From a bacterium (lineage in GTDB: Bacteria > UBA8248), in the NCBI GenBank assembly GCA_965219955.1, contig OZ244799.1, forward strand, positions 3,296,001 to 3,360,000: DNA of 64,000 nt. The letters are read 5' to 3'. Positions 3,648-11,320 of this stretch are shown in pieces. Below the pieces are notes generated by a model. It saw only the letters and a program-made list of their open reading frames with translations, did no database searches and was not told the origin of the DNA. The position numbers were made by a program, and so were the translations under genes. Position 1 is the stretch's first letter. Each line of letters starts with the position of its first letter.

Positions 3648-4511
3648 CCCCCTTGTCCGGGGTTGTTGAGAAAGTCCTGCAATACCGGAATGACGGCAAT
3701 GGTATCCCGCCTTGGCGTAGGTAGTGTAGGGGCCGCATACATGCGGCCCGTCGTTGGAAGGCAAAAAGGCCGGGTCGCATATATGCGACCCCTACACACA
3801 AGAGATCCGCCCGGTGAAGGCTTTTTCAAGCGGTGGGGGGTACGATGGTTTTGTAGGGACAGGCCTCCGTGCCTGTCCTGCCCTTCGTGGTTGTCCTTCG
3901 TCAGGACAGGCACGGAGGCCTGTCCCTACAGAACCACCACGCCAGTCCGTAATCACTCCCCCCTTGAGGGGCTTGTTGAAAAACCCCCTCATCCCGAGTA
4001 GGCGCGCTTGCGCGCCGTATCGAGGGACGAGGGAGAGCCGGGAGCCTGGCCTGAGATTGTCGATGGGGAGCGCCCTTCGATACAAACGCTCCTTTCTCAG
4101 TCGCGTTTTACCTTCGGCGGCTACTCAGGGTGAGGCGGCGTGGTTTTGTTCGTCATTCCGGCGAAAGCCGGAATCCATTTTGACTTTTTGCTTTTCGCAT
4201 TGATTCATGCTCGACAAAGCCGCAATCAAACGCCTGAACGCATCCGCCCTCATCGGCTCCGGACTCCGCATTCTCTCCCGTCCCGAGCGGGGCTGACGCC
4301 GGAATAACGATCAAAGACGAAAGGCGAAAATGGATTCCGGCTTTCGCCGGAATGACGGTGGTTTTCCCGCATTGAGGGGCTTTTTCAACAGGCCCCTCAA
4401 GGGGGGAGTGATTCCTCTCTCCTTGGGCTTTTTCAACAATCCCGTCAAGGGGGGGTAGGGGGGGTTGCTTTTCGAGACAGCGTTTTTGTAGGGGCCGTTC
4501 GTGAACGGCCC
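3648..4511. repeat. Large nested REP/MITE cluster
   Basis: GTAG-REP doublets at ~3727-3795 and 3852-3930; a 463-bp element 3951-4413 with 40-bp TIRs (2 mismatches) enclosing CTCATCC-type and GTCATTCCGGCGAAAGCCGGAATCC-type inverted pairs; outer ends near 3660 and 4426. Confidence 0.85.
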
Positions 4512-5480
4512 TCACCGCCCGTAGCGCAGCCTCGCTACGGCGCCCTGTTTCGCGATCTGTCCCTGCGCGTAGCGGCCCGGCATGGCCGGCGAGCGCCAGC
4601 GGCCGGCGAGCTGCATCTCGACCAGGGAGGCCCCCGCGCTCGCCAGGCTCTGCGCGCCCCCCACCCGGAGGCTGTGGCCGCTCACGCGCCCCTCGGCGCC
4701 CGCGGCCTTCCCCCACCGCGCGATGACGCCCCGGATGCTCCTGTCCGTCAGGCGCCCGGGCCGAAGCCGCCCCCCCTTGTAGACGGGCCGGAAGAGCGCT
4801 CCCTCCTCGATGCCCGCGCGCGCCAGCCAGGCCCGGATGCGCTCCACCGTCGGCGCCCCGAGGAACTGCACGACGCCCAGGCCCTCCTGGTCCGTCTTCG
4901 AGCGCCGGATCCGCACCGTCTGCTCGCCCAGGTCCACGTCCGCAACGTCCAGGGCCGCGACCTCCGACACCCGCAGCAGCGCGTCGCTCGCCACCGCCAC
5001 GATCGCGGCGTCACGCACGCCCCCCAGGGTCCCCGTCCCCTCCGCCAGCGTCGCCGCAAGGTCCGCCTCCTCCCAGCGCACCCCGGCCACCTGGCCGCGG
5101 CCGCGCTCCGAACCCAGACGCCTGAAGCCCGCCAGGGCGCGCAGCGCCGAAGGACCCACCGGAGAGGAGCGGCCGCCCAGCCTCGCCCGGAACCGCAGCG
5201 CCGCAACCGCCATCGAGGCGCAGGCCGCCGAGCGGCCCTTCTCGAAGAGCCCCGTGAGGTAGGCCGCCACCCCGGCGTCGGTCTCGGGATACCCCGAATC
5301 CTCGAAACCGCGCAGCGCCGCCTCGTAGGCGCGGCGCGTGTTCTCGGCGATAGAGGCGCGCACCAGATCAGACGCCGCGCGGAACGGACCGAAGCGCGTC
5401 GGGCGGCCTTCGTCGGGTTTTTCCAGGGGGGAGCGTCTCCCCGGCGTCGCGGGTCTCGCCCATGGTTCTCCGTTGTCCAT
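4512..5480 (-). CDS. Tyrosine recombinase (Cre-like phage integrase family)
   Basis: Catalytic residues present: LLRVSE (R), RRSKTDQEG (K), SGHSLRVG (HxxR), GRW, and GRY (Y nucleophile). N-terminal SAM-like AENTRRAY. Start taken at the in-frame ATG 5480 (ORF extends to 5576). Confidence 0.93.
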   Translation of the reverse strand: MDNGEPWARPATPGRRSPLEKPDEGRPTRFGPFRAASDLVRASIAENTRRAYEAALRGFEDSGYPETDAGVAAYLTGLFEKGRSAACASMAVAALRFRARLGGRSSPVGPSALRALAGFRRLGSERGRGQVAGVRWEEADLAATLAEGTGTLGGVRDAAIVAVASDALLRVSEVAALDVADVDLGEQTVRIRRSKTDQEGLGVVQFLGAPTVERIRAWLARAGIEEGALFRPVYKGGRLRPGRLTDRSIRGVIARWGKAAGAEGRVSGHSLRVGGAQSLASAGASLVEMQLAGRWRSPAMPGRYAQGQIAKQGAVARLRYGR

Positions 5481-5635
5481 CGTTTGTCCGGCGTCCTGAA
5501 GTTCCGGCGGCGATTCCCGTTCAAGGGGCTGCCATCCCGGGTCCACGCCACATATATGTCGCCTTCCCGATCCCATGCAACATATATAAGGCCGAAAAGG
5601 AAGAATCGCCCGCCGGAATCGTTTTTTTTACCCTA

Positions 5636-5678
5636 TCTTTACAGCAATCCCTGTCTTTTCTTTACGGCAATCCCTGTC
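5636..5678. repeat. Tandem 20-bp direct repeat (period 23)
   Basis: TCTTTACAGCAATCCCTGTC (5636-5655) and TCTTTACGGCAATCCCTGTC (5659-5678), 1 mismatch. Confidence 0.8.
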
Positions 5679-5693
5679 CTTGCCGCAATTACA

Positions 5694-5717
5694 TTCTTAT
5701 AACTGTTATTATCAGAA
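5694..5717. other. Candidate tyrosine-recombinase crossover site, left (lox/dif-like)
   Basis: TTCTTATAA-ctgtta-TTATCAGAA: 9-bp near-inverted arms (1 mismatch) around a 6-bp asymmetric spacer, upstream of the recombinase. Confidence 0.65.
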
Positions 5718-5745
5718 AATATAACACCTCTCACGACCATGTCAA
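5718..5745 (-). promoter_or_regulatory. sigma70-type promoter inside the candidate invertible segment
   Basis: Minus strand: TTGACA (5745-5740), 16-bp spacer ending TGn, TATATT (5723-5718). Predicted start near 5711, pointing to the recombinase. Confidence 0.7.
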
Positions 5746-5861
5746 GCGCGATTTCGGGGTCCCCGGAGGGGTTTCGGGCGCCGTTTCGCGTCTTTTTTCG
5801 CTCATTTTCGGCCCGAATGCGCCCCGAAACGGCTCTCCCGGCGGAGAACGGGGCTTCCAGT

Positions 5862-5885
5862 GTCCAGTAATAACAGTTAGCGGCG
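5862..5885. other. Candidate tyrosine-recombinase crossover site, right (inverted relative to left)
   Basis: GTCCAGTAA-taacag-TTAGCGGCG; core 5868-5879 TAATAACAGTTA is the exact reverse complement of 5700-5711 TAACTGTTATTA. Confidence 0.55.
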
Positions 5886-6432
5886 GGCAGGCCGGGTTCA
5901 AGGCGCCCGGAAGACACTTGCCTTTGGAGGCCGTGAAGGGCGGGCGCATGCCGCAGGAATATGTGTCCCGCGGAACCACCGGCCCGGACGGCGGCGCGGC
6001 CTCGCCGCCGCGCCCCGGCGCTGCCGATACGGATCAGGACGGGCCGGACGGCGGCCTTTATATACACGCGATAGAGGAGGTTCATCAGACGAAGCCGAGA
6101 ATGCGCTGGAGAAACCTTTATTGACCCGAGTTTGCAACGCGATTCACGAGGCGCGGTCATCCCGGAGATGACGGTGTAAACAAAAAGACCCTCCCCCCCG
6201 AAGAACCAGCTTGCGGCGGGGACCATCCCGAAAGATCCACGCCTCCTGAATGACGTCCCAGGCAGATTGGACGGCGGGCCCGGAAGACGCCGGCTCCCCG
6301 TTCCGCCAGGACAGGCTCACAAACACAAATAGATGAAAGATCCGAATTAAACGCGAGGAAAGGAGGTTAATCGGAGAAAGCCGGAAATTCACTGAAGATC
6401 CCTTTTTCTATGTATTCAGGAGGACTCACTAA

Positions 6433-8334
6433 ATGATGTTCAAAGACAAGTATATTCACAAGTTTTACGCTTTCGCGCTGGCGGCCGTGTTCGCGCTGAC
6501 GCTGGCCGGCTGCGGCGGCGGCGGTGGCACGGCGGCGGCGCCGGACCCGGAGCCGCCCGCAATGCCGGAACCGACCCCGCAGGAAACCTGCGAGGGTGAC
6601 GGCGGCCGCTATAACGCGGACGGCTCCTGCACGAGCGCTGAGGATCTCGCGGCGGAAATGACCGAAGCGGAAGCCCTGAGCGCCGCGCAGGAAGCAGCGA
6701 TGACGGCCTACATGGCGGCGATGGCGGCAGTGGCCGGTGCGGTGGACCCCGTGGCGGCTACGAACGCGCAGCCGCACGCAACCGCGGCCATGGCGGCATC
6801 CGCCTCGGCGGCGGCGGCCACGGATTCGGCGACGGCCATGGAGCACCAGGCGGCGGCCGAGGCGGCCCGCGACATGGCGGTGGAAGCCGGCATGACGCGC
6901 GGCCTGGGGATCACCACACGGGCGAACGCGGCTTCCAACCAGGCCGCCATCGACAGCGCCACTCTCGTCGGCGTGCCTGCTCCCGCTCCGGTATCCAATG
7001 CGGGAAGAGTGGGCAGGGCGATGGCAGCCGCTGCGACGACGGTAGCTGCGGGCGCCGATGGCAATGTCGACGGTAGCGCTACTACTACAAATCCAGATAC
7101 CACCCAGCAGGGCGCAGTGGTCACGTCATCGGCGAGAAACATCGGCAGTGGTCCCAGATTCACGGTAATGGCGCCGACCGGCGGCACCGCCACCCCTCAG
7201 TTGAGAGGCGAAAGCCCGACAGCGATCACGACGCGCGGCGGCTGGGCGGGCGCCGAATTGCTGAGCGGCTCGGGCGCTCCGGGTGGCAACAGAGGGTATG
7301 CCCTCGTATTCACGGACATCAATCCGGCGGCGCAGAGTTATTACACCGCTGTTGATACCACCATCCCCGCTAGCGCGAATTTCCGTAATGCTGACCAACT
7401 AGCAGCAAATGTTGATACAACAGAAACTACCGGCCAAAGCGTAAACAGGGCTGTCATCGGCGGAGAAATCCCGGGAGACGGAAGCCACTTTGTGGGAACG
7501 TATAATCAGATCCCCACCGACAACAACCCGCCTGTTCCGGGACGGTTCTTCTGTGGTACCGGCGTGGCCTGCTCCATCAGCGTAGACGCCTCGGGCGTCC
7601 TCAGGGGGATTACGGGCTACGTGTTCCAGCCCGCCATCGCTGGATCCGTGATGCGGGGAGACTCGGACTATATGACCTGGGGCGTTTGGGTGAACATTCC
7701 GAACGACCCGCAACAGACGAGCGGAACTACTACTGCAGATGCTGCTCTTACGAACCCCGCAACCGCCGCCGCATTCGCCAGCGGCAGGGACCCGTTCCAG
7801 GTTCCGGCCGATCTCACGGGCACGGCGACGTATAACGGGGTCGCGAACGGCCTGTATGCGGCGGGCGGCATGGTCGAGTACTTCGAAGCCGACGCCAGCC
7901 TTTCGGCCGATTTCGGCGGCAGGAGAGCCAACGATTCTGATCCCAGAGATGGTACCGCGAACGACAATGGCCTCCTGGGCGCCGTCACCGGATCCATCAC
8001 CAACATCAAGGCCGGCGGCATGGACGTCGAAGGTTCGCTGACGCTGGGTAGAGCTCCACTGCTCGCCGGTGATCCTGCTGTTACGACACCTGCTACTGCT
8101 CCTACAGCTGATTCCCCGGCCAACGTCTTCAGAGGCAACACCCAAGGCTCCCTGGGCGGCAGGGCCATACAAGGTTCCTGGACGGGGCGGTTCTACGGCC
8201 CCCAAAGGGCGCAGGGCGTGGCGATTCGAACCGAATTCCCCACGACCGCGGCTGGCACCTTCGGCGCCAGAACGCCTGCGGGCGCCCCAGGGGTCAGCAT
8301 CCTGGGTTCTTTCGGCACGTGGAGGGCCGAGTAA
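6433..8334 (+). CDS. Large surface lipoprotein with Ala-rich stalk and TbpB-like C-terminal beta-barrel
   Basis: Lipobox LAGC then GGGGG; RBS AGGAGG. C-terminal strand pattern DYMTWGVWV...GTATYNGVANG...LSADFG...VTGSITNI...WTGRFYGP...AAGTFGA...ILGSFG resembles transferrin-binding-protein barrel domains. Confidence 0.75.
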   Translation: MMFKDKYIHKFYAFALAAVFALTLAGCGGGGGTAAAPDPEPPAMPEPTPQETCEGDGGRYNADGSCTSAEDLAAEMTEAEALSAAQEAAMTAYMAAMAAVAGAVDPVAATNAQPHATAAMAASASAAAATDSATAMEHQAAAEAARDMAVEAGMTRGLGITTRANAASNQAAIDSATLVGVPAPAPVSNAGRVGRAMAAAATTVAAGADGNVDGSATTTNPDTTQQGAVVTSSARNIGSGPRFTVMAPTGGTATPQLRGESPTAITTRGGWAGAELLSGSGAPGGNRGYALVFTDINPAAQSYYTAVDTTIPASANFRNADQLAANVDTTETTGQSVNRAVIGGEIPGDGSHFVGTYNQIPTDNNPPVPGRFFCGTGVACSISVDASGVLRGITGYVFQPAIAGSVMRGDSDYMTWGVWVNIPNDPQQTSGTTTADAALTNPATAAAFASGRDPFQVPADLTGTATYNGVANGLYAAGGMVEYFEADASLSADFGGRRANDSDPRDGTANDNGLLGAVTGSITNIKAGGMDVEGSLTLGRAPLLAGDPAVTTPATAPTADSPANVFRGNTQGSLGGRAIQGSWTGRFYGPQRAQGVAIRTEFPTTAAGTFGARTPAGAPGVSILGSFGTWRAE

Positions 8335-8355
8335 GCAACAGCGCATGACTCCTTC

Positions 8356-8387
8356 GGTTCCCGGGCGTCAGCACGACGCCCGGGGCC
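8356..8387 (+). terminator. GC-rich hairpin after lipoprotein 1 (terminator or mRNA stabiliser; no U-tract)
   Basis: CCCGGGCGTC-agcac-GACGCCCGGG perfect 10-bp stem. Confidence 0.4.
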
Positions 8388-8497
8388 GGGGGATGAACGA
8401 ACGCGGCGCAAGGCGTCGCGCAGGCAGTAGATGGAAACCCAAGTTTTATCCGCTCGCCCCTTCCGTTTTCCCGGAAGGAACCAGCCTTAGGGGGCAA

Positions 8498-10288
8498 ATG
8501 ATGAAAATGCTCAAGCTTTTGGGATTGACGGTATTTGTCGTGTGCATTGCGGCATTTGCCTCCGGCTGCGGCGGCGGTGGCGGCGGCTCTGCGATGACGC
8601 CGGAGGAACCGCCGCCGGTGATGGAATGCCCGGAGGGTCAGGTCGGGACGTACCCGGACTGCACGGAACCGGGGCCGACGGATGAGCAAAGGATAGCCGC
8701 GGCGAGGCAAATACTCGCAGACAACCTCACTGACGCCCGCAGTCTGGCGCTAGCGGCGAGTTCGGTGGCGGCAGCGGTGCAGTTCCACCCCGACGCCACG
8801 GCGGAGCAGGTAGATCTTGCTCTCGGTTATGCAGCCGACGCGCAAGCGGCCCTGGCGGCTGTCGAGGCCGCGAGGGACGCCGGGAATGCGGCCGCCGCCA
8901 CGCTCACGCAGGCGCAAGCCGCGGTGACGGCCGCGCAGGCGGCGCTTAATGACCTGACGGCCGCGCAATCGGCGGCGGCGGGCATCCAGAGCGCCGTGGA
9001 AGCGGTTGCGAGCCAGCGCCAACAAATGCAAGCGAACGAGGCCGCCCTGACGAACAACTCCTCGCTCATCCAGCATGTGAGAGCCAACAAGATCCTCTCC
9101 GACGCGCTGTTGGAGGATCTGGAGCCCGCCCGGCTTGTTGGAGGTCGGGCCGGGGTCACCGACGGTTCTGACCCGCAAATTGCTGAAGATGATACCGAGT
9201 CGTGCACTGCGCCGTGCGCCACGTTCCCTGCGAATACCGGGACCGGCGCAACAGCGGTCGTCGGACAGCGGGGAGTTCGGGTGGGAACCCTTATTTCGAA
9301 CAGCACGACGCCTGCGCTTACCGGAACGGGCCGCCTTCCCTATGGATTCAATCTGGAAATGGAAGACACCCCCTCTGCTGATATTACCACCTTCATCAAC
9401 GCCTACACGGACATTTCGCAAACGCGGCTCAAGGTAAGAAGAAGAACGAATTTCCTGGAAGACGATGCTGCGGAAGGCGATCGGCGGTATGAAGAAGTAG
9501 ATGTGGCAGACACCGACTATCTGCTCGCCGGAATCTGGATGACGGTGAACAACGCCAATCTGGGCGAATCTCAGATACAAGCCTTCGCGTATGGGAGCCA
9601 GCCCATCGTCGCATCTTTCAATTTCTGTAGTGGTATTGAAGGCCCTACTGATCCGGTATCTACAATGGTAACATCAACAGCTACTCCAGCGGTAACAACG
9701 ACGACTACAAGAGCATGTGCGCCGACTGAAGGATTAAGCACCATCGCCGGCGCCAATGGATTTGTGGACGAAGGCAAAGACGTGACGGCCACCTACACGG
9801 GGGATGCGAACGGCGCCTACATCGCGGGAGGAGATACGAGTTATTTCACCGGGAGCGTCGAACTCACGGCCGAGTTCCAGAACCCGATAACTCAAGGAAA
9901 CATGGTTGCTGAGGATGGCAAGGGCAGCATTCAGGGTTCGGTCACGAACATCACCTCCGGTGGACAGTCAATCGTGGGCAGCATCGAGCTTCAAAAACAG
10001 ACCCTTGGAAATGATATAAACACCGCTTTTGCTGGTGCGGCCGTCGGCGTGGTGGACGGCAAATCCTTCGGCGGCAATTGGAGGGGCCAGTTCTTCGGAC
10101 TGAGACACAAACCCAAAACCACGGAAACGGTAACGGATAGAACGGATCCTCTTGCTATAACAACTACCATAACAACGACGTACAAGCCCGATGCACCCGG
10201 TTCGGTTGCGGGAACCTTTTTCGTCAAGCAGCTGAGCAACCCGGCTGGAGAGGCCGCCTTCATCGGCGCGTTCGGGGCGCACAGGTAA
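8498..10288 (+). CDS. Second surface lipoprotein, paralogous architecture (Ala-rich stalk, TbpB-like barrel)
   Basis: Start at ATG 8498 (MMKMLKLLGL...ASGC GGGGGG lipobox). DYLLAGIWM, TATYTGDANGAY, LTAEF, IQGSVTNI, WRGQFFG, VAGTF, FIGAFGA parallel the motifs of lipoprotein 1. Confidence 0.75.
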   Translation: MMKMLKLLGLTVFVVCIAAFASGCGGGGGGSAMTPEEPPPVMECPEGQVGTYPDCTEPGPTDEQRIAAARQILADNLTDARSLALAASSVAAAVQFHPDATAEQVDLALGYAADAQAALAAVEAARDAGNAAAATLTQAQAAVTAAQAALNDLTAAQSAAAGIQSAVEAVASQRQQMQANEAALTNNSSLIQHVRANKILSDALLEDLEPARLVGGRAGVTDGSDPQIAEDDTESCTAPCATFPANTGTGATAVVGQRGVRVGTLISNSTTPALTGTGRLPYGFNLEMEDTPSADITTFINAYTDISQTRLKVRRRTNFLEDDAAEGDRRYEEVDVADTDYLLAGIWMTVNNANLGESQIQAFAYGSQPIVASFNFCSGIEGPTDPVSTMVTSTATPAVTTTTTRACAPTEGLSTIAGANGFVDEGKDVTATYTGDANGAYIAGGDTSYFTGSVELTAEFQNPITQGNMVAEDGKGSIQGSVTNITSGGQSIVGSIELQKQTLGNDINTAFAGAAVGVVDGKSFGGNWRGQFFGLRHKPKTTETVTDRTDPLAITTTITTTYKPDAPGSVAGTFFVKQLSNPAGEAAFIGAFGAHR

Positions 10289-10552: not shown

Positions 10553-11320
10553 GGGGGTTTTTCAACAACCCCTGAAAGCAGCCCTTCGAGGGGTGTCGGC
10601 CCTTTCCTCCACAGACCACGCGTTTTCGCCTCCCCGCCTTGAAAGGACAGCGCCGAGGAGGGGCTGTCCTTTATCCCCCGACAAGGGTCTGTTGAAAAAA
10701 TCCCCTGAGGGAGCGCGTTGAATTTCACTCCCCCCTTGAGGAGGGGGAGTCGGCAAGACGAGGGCGAAGCCCGAAGTCGCGCCGGTGGGGGGACATGCCA
10801 CAGAGTAAACCTCCCCCCACCGAATCGGCCTTCGCAAAAAACGCTCGGCCTCTTCGTCTGGCTTTCCCCTCGGGAAGCCAGACCCTCAAGGGCCTGTTGA
10901 AAAAGTCCTCTCCGCCTCATCCTGAGTAGCGGCGGAGCCGCGTATCGAAGGATGCCCTCTCACCCGGCGCGAGGTGTTCGACTCCCCGCGCCCTTCGATA
11001 CGCCGCCCTTCGACAAGCTCAGGACAGGCTCTTCGGCGGCTACTCAGGGTGAGGAAAGAGGCGTTGGCGGTTTGTGGAGGGGCAGACCAGGCTTTTTCAA
11101 CAGCCCCCTCAAGGGGGGAGTGGTTCCTCTCTCGTCGGTCGGTTACTTACGACAAATAATGAGAGGCGTTGTGAGATTCTCCGGAAGGGTTTTGTAGCAG
11201 GACAACCCAAAAGGGTTGTCCTGGCCTCCGTGGTTGTCCTTCGTCAGGACAGGCACGGAGGGCTGTCCCTACAGCGAACAATCTCGAAGGTCGGATAGGA
11301 CTTTTTGGGCAACCCCTCAC
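10553..11320. repeat. Nested REP/MITE cluster
   Basis: CACTCCCCCCTTGAG...CTCAAGGGGGGAGTG palindrome interrupted by an element 10890-11106 (GGGCCTGTTGAAAAAG...CTTTTTCAACAGCCC) flanked by a CCTCAA direct repeat; it encloses a CTCATCCTGAG-type pair. GTAG-REP near 11246-11272. Confidence 0.85.

Follow-up and report, generated by a model that had tools for sequence, protein, structure and literature searches.

Does the short intergenic segment between a tyrosine recombinase gene and a pair of lipoprotein genes in a bacterium of the GTDB lineage UBA8248 act as an invertible promoter, by which the lipoproteins could be switched on and off? The segment lies in a stretch of 64,000 nucleotides (contig OZ244799.1 of assembly GCA_965219955.1, positions 3,296,001 to 3,360,000 of the forward strand), here called the window; coordinates refer to it unless a contig handle is given, and the genome from which it comes is labelled G000. 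The locus extends from 4512 to 10288, with the recombinase encoded on the minus strand, the lipoprotein genes lp1 and lp2 on the plus strand, and inverted copies of a 12-bp core between them. We consider it likely that this locus is a working inverton, that is, a phase-variation switch operated by a tyrosine recombinase, and it is a near-certainty that the family of elements to which it belongs inverts. The evidence comes from the architecture of the sites in the window, from the way in which these sites vary among related genomes, and from copies that are found in the opposite orientation.

Predicted recombination sites and promoter at the window locus

A repeat search recovered a 12-nt inverted pair, TAACTGTTATTA at 5700-5711 (+ strand) and its exact reverse complement at 5868-5879, which is 100% complementary with 156 nt between the arms. 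With up to one mismatch allowed, TAACTGTTATTA has two matches in the 64-kb window, both of them members of the pair, compared with a mean of 0.00 in 100 dinucleotide shuffles. In the 4.28-Mb genome it has two exact matches, again the pair, and one match with a single mismatch elsewhere. The 12-mer read backwards, used as a control pattern, gave 3+4 matches in the same genome at up to one mismatch, so that a 12-mer at this stringency is not rare there. What is unusual is the exactness, the inverted orientation and the close spacing (156 bp) of the two copies, not the word itself.

Each core sits within a putative 22-bp recombination site that consists of an 8-bp half-site, a 6-bp spacer and an inverted half-site. 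The left site (5695-5716, + strand) comprises TCTTATAA, the spacer CTGTTA (5703-5708) and TTATCAGA, and the right site (5863-5884, + strand) comprises TCCAGTAA, the spacer TAACAG (5871-5876) and TTAGCGGC; the right spacer is the reverse complement of the left, and both are asymmetric as judged by eye. Measured from spacer to spacer, the invertible segment would cover 5703-5876 (174 bp), and from core to core 5700-5879 (180 bp).

The segment carries a promoter consensus match on the minus strand, TTGACA-16-(TGt)TATATT at 5718-5745, with the -35 hexamer at 5745-5740 and the -10 hexamer at 5723-5718, which agrees with the consensus at 11 of 12 positions and has the TG dinucleotide in addition. 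This promoter and an overlapping alternative reading of it were the sole sigma-70-like matches in a consensus scan of both strands from 5400 to 6500. Its predicted (unmapped) transcription start falls at about 5709-5713, on the inner edge of the left core. The sequence-only reading from which this work started had reported both the identical inverted cores and a promoter of this form between them, and both descriptions hold.

As assembled, the single strong sigma-70-type promoter would point at the recombinase, leaving lp1-lp2, which lack a promoter of their own, OFF. Since neither the recombinase nor lp1 has another consensus promoter in front of it, we agree with the sequence-only reading that ‘lipoproteins OFF, recombinase transcribed’ is a fair interpretation of the assembled state. 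An independent promoter in 5890-6430, which that reading had named as an observation that would speak against a switch, was not found when the + strand of this interval was scanned for consensus matches, and no + strand terminator was matched in 5885-6432. The interval 5885-6432 (+ strand), between the switch and lp1, would form the 5′ untranslated region of an ON-state transcript, and its first ~100 nt are conserved among copies. On the other side, the region from the recombinase start to the left site (5481-5694) would serve as the 5′ leader of the recombinase transcript should transcription from the switch enter the gene; a hairpin followed by a U-run was sought in the leftward transcript across 5481-5694 and none was found, nor was any other consensus promoter.

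The leader is 554 nt long at the window locus (locus A) and 474 nt at a paralogous locus of the same genome (locus D), compared with ~230-270 nt in most copies. A 45-nt stretch that includes the ribosome-binding region of lp1 (6361-6405) is duplicated 286 nt upstream (6075-6119, 76% alike), and it is because of this duplication that the leaders of loci A and D are ~200-300 nt longer. Within the segment, a weak terminator-like hairpin with a T-run (5776-5803, + strand; stem of 6 pairs) faces away from the promoter and is found at the same place in copies L051 and L041; with low confidence, it possibly provides insulation against read-through.

Several smaller repeats surround these elements. 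Upstream of the -35 hexamer, at 5752-5830, four copies of TTTCGGG / CCCGAAA (two direct, two inverted) form a roughly symmetric array that is fairly conserved in the family and may be a site for an accessory protein. Beside the left site, at 5636-5699, are three tandem direct repeats of ~23 nt (TCTTTACrGCAATCCCTGTC..), present as a single copy in the orthologues L005 and L006, and upstream of the recombinase start, at 5531-5587, are two 27-nt repeats with ACATATAT at their ends. The repeats at both places may be protein-binding sites, or mere local duplications.

Copies of the element in related genomes

Relatives were searched with positions 5690-5890 of the window, and 59 complete, distinct copies were scored, leaving out one copy cut by a contig end and one 70-nt end fragment. 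The segment proved to be a multi-copy element: of 23 genomes from the genus, 12 have full copies. G002 and G012 carry 16 complete copies apiece and G000 carries four, of which the three outside the window lie near positions 1631286, 2928490 and 4270874 of G000:C1. The matches in G024, G044 and G006, and a second match in G008, are short or weak. As far as searched, the element appears to be confined to the genus. An exact 24-mer from the segment had no match in JGI metagenome contigs, and a looser motif retrieved two stretches from the same contigs, both of which were rejected as unrelated chance matches.

The paired cores are perfect reverse complements in 58 of the 59 copies, with a single mismatch in the remaining one. 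All cores have the form TAA-N6-TTA, in which positions 1-3 (TAA) and 10-12 (TTA) are the same in 59/59 copies and all variation falls in the central six, where 23 forms occur. The 12-mers thus differ by locus, each being mirrored in its partner: in G000 they are TAACTGTTATTA at locus A, TAATTATTGTTA at locus B and TAAATGTTGTTA at locus D. A half-site consensus, TCYGNTAA, is found in all four arms, with C at -7 in 59, 58 (inner left arm), 59 and 59 of the 59 copies, mostly G at -5, and TAA in every arm of every copy. Constant arms around a mirrored, variable spacer are the pattern expected of a tyrosine-recombinase site, in which the arms would be read by the protein while the spacer would need to match its partner only. 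The division of each site into arm, 6-bp spacer and arm, first proposed from the window by itself, coincides with these limits of variation. The copy with the sole spacer mismatch, L049 (G002:C1:3371526-3371721), is possibly a decayed switch.

Within a genome most spacers differ from one another: all are distinct in G000 (4/4) and G003 (6/6), as are 13/16 in G012 and 8/16 in G002. The -35 hexamer TTGACA is kept in all 53 family copies examined for it, and TATATT at 16-nt spacing in 31 of them. Next to the switch, a full recombinase gene (divergent, within 450 bp) accompanies 25 of the 56 copies with enough flanking sequence; four more have fragments only, and 27 have none. Two of the copies in G000 are such orphans. 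At orphan D the promoter is directed at a repeat field and at a gene that we take to be smpB, and at orphan F at another gene, presumably thiI-like, both names being judged from the N-termini.

The distribution of terminators bears on a further proposal of the sequence-only reading, namely that one promoter toggling between the recombinase and the lipoproteins gives built-in feedback. At the window locus this would be possible: neither a terminator nor another consensus promoter lies between the switch and the recombinase, and no hairpin with a T-run was found on the recombinase side of locus A. It is not a design of the family as a whole, in which those 27 of 56 copies lack a neighbouring recombinase gene and a hairpin with a T-run stands on the recombinase (non-cargo) side in 20 of 59, where it would stop the OFF-state transcript. 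The non-cargo-side hairpin of L051 folds at -29.3 kcal/mol (z -3.6). No copy (0/59) has a hairpin with a T-run within the first 200 nt on the cargo side.

Both orientations occur in the family

The orientation of each of the 59 copies was called by which flank carries the conserved cargo-side leader, using a reading of the flanks together with a flank k-mer classifier. By this measure 52 copies are oriented as in the window and seven are flipped: L041 and L101 in G012, L052, L099 and L100 in G002, L060 in G014 and L061 in G005. The seven carry six different combinations of spacer and genome, and must go back to at least six separate events.

Pairwise comparisons locate the breakpoints. The flanks of L041 and L065 align in the same orientation (+/+) at 89% and 92% identity, with the 188 bp between them reversed. 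The same holds for L052 compared with L037, whose flanks come from two different genomes, and for L060 compared with L035, in which the flanks are collinear and the segment alone is reversed; over the three pairs the reversed segment measures ~185-206 bp. At the junctions of flipped copies, the outer flanks are exchanged and reverse-complemented exactly at the cores. Misassembly is an unlikely cause of these flips, because assembly k-mers are longer than the 12-bp repeat and several of the genomes are single contigs. The comparison of related genomes, one of the tests suggested from the sequence, is thus positive for the family, with both orientations present (7/59 flipped), breakpoints in the 12-bp cores and collinear flanks.

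Flipped copies have their promoter directed at the cargo, and in L041, L052 and L060 the core that it faces is separated by 229-272 nt from the start of a lipoprotein gene with the conserved signal sequence. Of the seven flipped copies, three are orphans with no adjacent recombinase, which suggests either trans action by recombinases or loss of the gene once the segment had flipped. L061 (G005:C304), in which the recombinase matches only in three fragments, is another possible decayed switch and may be locked ON.

The recombinase and a model for inversion

The recombinase gene occupies 4512-5480 on the minus strand and encodes 322 aa from M33 of an open frame that extends to 5576 (354 aa). We place the start at M33 (nt 5480) because the closest database homologues are 322 aa long; this start is 219 nt from the left core, and the gene is divergent from the cargo. 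The protein matches Pfam PF00589 (Phage_integrase, E 1.8e-18), and in a phmmer search against the PDB its best solved relative was Cre (E 1.7e-15 over residues 96-350), followed by XerA (2e-3). Residues R202, E205, K227, H301, R304, W327 and Y336 align with the catalytic set of Cre (R-E-K-H-R-W-Y), so that all seven positions are kept.

NCBIfam models of FimB/FimE-type invertases scored below their cut-offs (NF007371, 25.5 vs 222 bits; NF007370, 17.2 vs 221 bits), as did the Xer models (best XerA, 54.7 vs 220 bits; XerC, 42.3 vs 335 bits). The earlier label of ‘Cre-like resolvase-type enzyme’ is apt in its first half and loose in its second, which would better read as a tyrosine recombinase acting as an invertase. 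An integron attI/attC reading of the locus was rejected, as the integron integrase model reached 12.6 bits against a 265-bit cut-off.

From what is known of Cre, we propose that the divergently encoded recombinase would bind the four half-sites and synapse them, and that strand exchange across the identical spacers, via a Holliday intermediate, would flip the 174-bp segment. After inversion, the promoter would read over the right core and through the 554-nt leader into lp1-lp2, giving the ON state. Spacer identity would be needed only between partner sites, and private spacers could thereby let similar recombinases flip each locus alone, disfavouring recombination between loci.

The genome encodes a second recombinase, 68% identical to the first, in the same divergent arrangement at one other lp1-lp2 pair. 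Three homologues that are more distant, L085 (75% identical), L089 (47%) and L091 (45%), have no comparable AT-rich inverted pair upstream. In L035 (G011:C20), the switch is accompanied on its recombinase side by two tandem recombinase genes, matched at 184 and 1306 nt from the core. Elsewhere in this genome, outside the window, a recombinase pseudogene (G000:C1:2609926-2610325) adjoins a 1986-bp inverted duplication whose copies (2611128-2613113 vs 2616034-2618018) are 99.95% identical. Fragments of lipoprotein genes lie within the duplication, and tandem repeats of ~675 bp come after it; the whole region (G000:C1:2609926-2622000) may represent a different, larger inversion system.

Alternative explanations

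The strongest alternative is that the family inverts while the copy in the window has ceased to do so, or flips at an evolutionary pace only; the promoter would then be the fixed promoter of the recombinase, and lp1-lp2 would be silent or transcribed from an unrecognised promoter. We consider such a locked or fossil switch unlikely, and it is the serious residual doubt about the locus. Several observations weigh on its side and against a working inverton. No flip was found at the window locus itself: all three copies with the CTGTTA spacer, in G000, G011 and G003, are in the assembled orientation, and so are all four copies of this genome. Of the 23 public runs found, four were examined as Logan contigs (X20 and X21, from one sample, X1 and X3; three samples in all), and in these the contigs cross the left and/or right core as assembled, with no strand-change joint. 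Such contigs drop minor variants, however, and this result neither proves nor excludes low-level switching at the window locus.

Other points against the inverton concern its parts. Our promoter calls assume that sigma-70 rules apply to the host lineage, and in 22 of 53 copies the -10 hexamer is other than TATATT, with A at position 2 missing from some of them. Trans action must be assumed for the 27 of 56 copies that have no adjacent recombinase. The spacers, too, are largely but not wholly private, as the 16 copies of G002 share eight spacers and the 16 of G012 share 13.

What speaks against a locked copy is its state of preservation. The cores are perfectly matched, the recombinase is intact with all its catalytic residues, and the promoter is the best of the family, whereas copies that do appear decayed look different, with a mismatched spacer (L049) or a fragmented recombinase (L061). 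A mostly-OFF state is, moreover, usual in phase-variable antigen families. We therefore favour a functional switch at the window locus, at the strength given at the outset.

Could the left site instead be a static regulatory sequence, an operator or a dif/res-like resolution site of the recombinase, with the right core incidental and no inversion taking place? The arms offer some grounds for this, in that the left arms, TCTTATAA and TTATCAGA, form the better palindrome and the right arms are weaker at the window locus. An incidental right core would not be expected to co-vary with the left one, as it does in 58 of 59 copies over 23 spacers, and a static site does not account for seven copies flipped at exactly these points; we regard this explanation as very improbable.

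Two further explanations are, in our view, scarcely credible. In the first, the segment is a ~180-bp non-autonomous transposon resembling a miniature inverted-repeat transposable element, which has spread and inserted either way round. Its copy number (up to 16 per genome), short length, terminal inverted repeats and AT-rich ends are all in keeping with such an element. The flanks are also homologous among copies, however, with the recombinase on one side and the leader and lipoprotein signal on the other, which means that whole modules were duplicated and not 180 bp alone. The termini vary between copies in their central 6 bp and yet match within each copy, whereas a transposase would need common termini. 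Whether flipped or not, copies sit at exactly the same place between collinear flanks, and no flanking direct duplication is visible.

In the second, the 12-bp pair closes the stem of a structured RNA or single-stranded DNA element, so that co-variation of the cores reflects base pairing and not recombination. Compensatory change in a 12-bp stem is a classic sign of RNA structure, and nested imperfect inverted repeats are present in the segment. Against this, a search of 5300-6600 returned no Rfam family at E up to 1, the variation is restricted to the central 6 bp with TAA/TTA invariant and no G-U-type intermediates in 58/59 copies, and a transcript from the sole consensus promoter would cover no more than ~30 nt of the segment; nor does a stem predict flipped copies or an adjacent recombinase. 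Finally, RecA-driven inversion between the 12-bp repeats can be dismissed, the repeats being too short by general knowledge of that process.

Lipoproteins, other cargo and probable surface export

The gene lp1 (6433-8334, + strand) encodes a 633-aa lipoprotein with the lipobox LTLAGC, which is helical in its N-terminal part and beta-rich and TbpB-like in its C-terminal part. It is followed by lp2 (8498-10288, + strand), a lipoprotein of ~596 aa from MMKMLK..ASGC; its lipobox ASGC is obtained only with the start at 8498, not with the start of the open reading frame at 8069. The C-terminal domain of lp2 is related to that of lp1, with 27% identity to the C-terminal part of lp1, and neither protein belongs to a Pfam or NCBIfam family. 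As there is no promoter match between the two genes, they are likely to form an operon.

An AlphaFold (AF2) model of lp1, computed from an alignment of 33 sequences, has a pLDDT of 75.8 and a pTM of 0.68, and shows a long helical N-terminal part with the rest beta-rich. The top PDB matches to this model in Foldseek were TbpB (E 8e-5, probability 0.98), hemophilin (probability 1.00), the C-domain of NHBA (target TM 0.65), fHbp and LbpB; whole-protein TM scores are low (0.17-0.19) because only part of lp1 aligns. The genome has one Slam gene (PF04575, 94.8 bits; G000:C1:2998776-2999645), which is not adjacent to the window locus. That gene adjoins another, distant lp1-like gene (G000:C1:2998776-3002695), an arrangement that resembles a classic pair of Slam and substrate.

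On the strength of the model and the Slam gene, lp1-lp2 and the related cargo of the family are probably TbpB-fold lipoproteins shown on the cell surface via the Slam translocon, and to call lp1 and lp2 surface lipoproteins is plausible on the same grounds. The likeness of lp1 to the Slam-dependent lipoproteins TbpB, LbpB, fHbp and NHBA, and to hemophilin, consists in its lipobox, in the presence of a Slam gene in its genome and in its best structural matches, which are these very proteins. The lipobox and these matches agree with the layout of the class, in which a lipobox is combined with a C-terminal handle and an 8-stranded barrel. It differs from them in having no sequence-family membership, in its extra, long helical N-terminal domain, and in that the Slam gene is not adjacent. 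We know of no description of control by DNA inversion for this class of lipoproteins.

The cargo in 42 of the 59 copies is a lipoprotein with the near-invariant signal YAFALAAVFAL..LAGCGGGGG, whose gene lies on the cargo side at a distance of at most 900 nt. Among the remaining cargos are reading frames in which Cadherin-like and fn3 domains, RTX repeats or an MpaB/Lcp domain were recognised. This genome has five lp1-lp2 pairs, of which A, B and D share the segment; its fourth copy of the segment, F, lies ahead of the gene for a different lipoprotein, which shares the signal peptide. The two pairs without the element, C and E, have marginal 9/12 promoter matches only, ~0.8-1 kb upstream. At locus C (G000:C1:2361124-2364587), the lp2-like gene matches in two pieces ~1.7 kb apart and appears to be interrupted or rearranged.

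Relation to known inversion systems

The best-known precedent is fimS of Escherichia coli, a short invertible promoter segment bounded by inverted repeats, which is flipped by the neighbouring tyrosine recombinases FimB and FimE and turns a surface structure on or off. The window locus shares with it a short segment with one promoter, short inverted repeats and a tyrosine recombinase gene alongside. Unlike in fimS, the recombinase falls outside the FimB/FimE family, as the model scores above show, and is divergently encoded, the cargo consists of lipoproteins and not fimbriae, and the element belongs to a family with up to 16 copies per genome and copy-specific spacers.

A second comparison is with Cre-loxP of phage P1, where half-sites of 13 bp flank a spacer of 8 bp, and for which heterospecific sites such as lox511 and lox2272 have been engineered. 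Cre is the best solved relative of the recombinase described here, and in both systems a site consists of two inverted half-sites around an asymmetric spacer, with inverted sites giving inversion. As in heterospecific lox sets, the sites of this family have the same arms and different spacers and need not cross-react, an orthogonality that their sequences suggest. In contrast to loxP, they have 8-bp conserved half-sites and a 6-bp variable spacer, are chromosomal, would serve gene regulation and not plasmid maintenance, and show natural spacer diversity (23 forms).

These likenesses allow a broader proposal, which we advance as possible without going so far as to call it probable. The genus may possess a switchboard that spans the genome, with up to 16 promoter invertons that work independently, share one lox-like half-site and have naturally diversified, largely private 6-bp spacers. 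A pool of paralogous Cre-like recombinases would act on them in trans, including on the roughly half of copies without a recombinase of their own, and would flip each surface-protein locus separately without scrambling the chromosome. Such a system would be a natural counterpart of the engineered heterospecific lox sets, by which an uncultured sponge-associated symbiont varies its TbpB-fold surface lipoproteins.

In Bacteroides, promoters of outer-surface proteins and capsules are flipped by tyrosine recombinases of the Tsr group and by Mpi. The family described here differs from the Bacteroides invertons in its phylum (the records of relatives are titled ‘MAG: Nitrospinota bacterium’ or ‘MAG: bacterium’), in its habitat labels and in its Cre-like recombinase clade; all of its copies, moreover, share one half-site consensus and differ in the spacer only. 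For Bacteroides and other gut bacteria, four reports describe genomes in which surface lipoproteins or polysaccharides are governed by many invertible promoters; at any one time most of these are OFF, and some have their own neighbouring tyrosine recombinase (PMC8748976, PMC11892184, PMC10939037, PMC9881135). Two further sources give the same general picture of invertible promoters (PMC7446863, PMC5903667). In Clostridioides difficile, RecV flips several short regulatory segments (flgB, cwpV, cmrRST, pdcB) upstream of surface or signalling genes (PMC7446863, PMC9286219, PMC5914908). RecV alone serves unrelated repeats, whereas here there are many paralogous recombinases and sites with common arms.

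The working principle of the switch is thus the known one of fimS, Bacteroides and C. difficile. The family departs from these systems in its Cre-like enzyme, in its many copies with a common half-site consensus and diversified spacers, in its TbpB-fold cargo and in its host lineage. Within the collection searched, we found no paper on this family, nor on invertons in sponge symbionts or Nitrospinota. The family described here places invertible promoters, which are familiar from gut and pathogenic bacteria, in an uncultured marine lineage; contigs nearly identical to the locus occur in public runs labelled sponge and marine metagenome. For surface variation in a symbiont, the data lead to the hypothesis of a panel of TbpB-fold lipoproteins, cadherin/fn3 and RTX proteins that is mostly OFF, with few members ON. 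With 23 spacer forms between constant arms, every one of them mirrored at the partner site, the family also provides a natural data set on the evolution of recombination sites, and genetic tools may be drawn from it in the form of Cre-like enzymes that use short sites, with spacers at hand that would not cross-react.

Repeat fields around the module

The module of recombinase and lipoproteins is bracketed by fields of short palindromic repeats of several kinds, similar to repetitive extragenic palindromic elements, at 2449-2692, 3846-4474 and 10872-11274. They include a 90-nt unit at 2550-2639 and 10984-11073 (98% alike) and hairpin units at 3846-3936 and 11217-11274, and they give rise to many spurious open reading frames.

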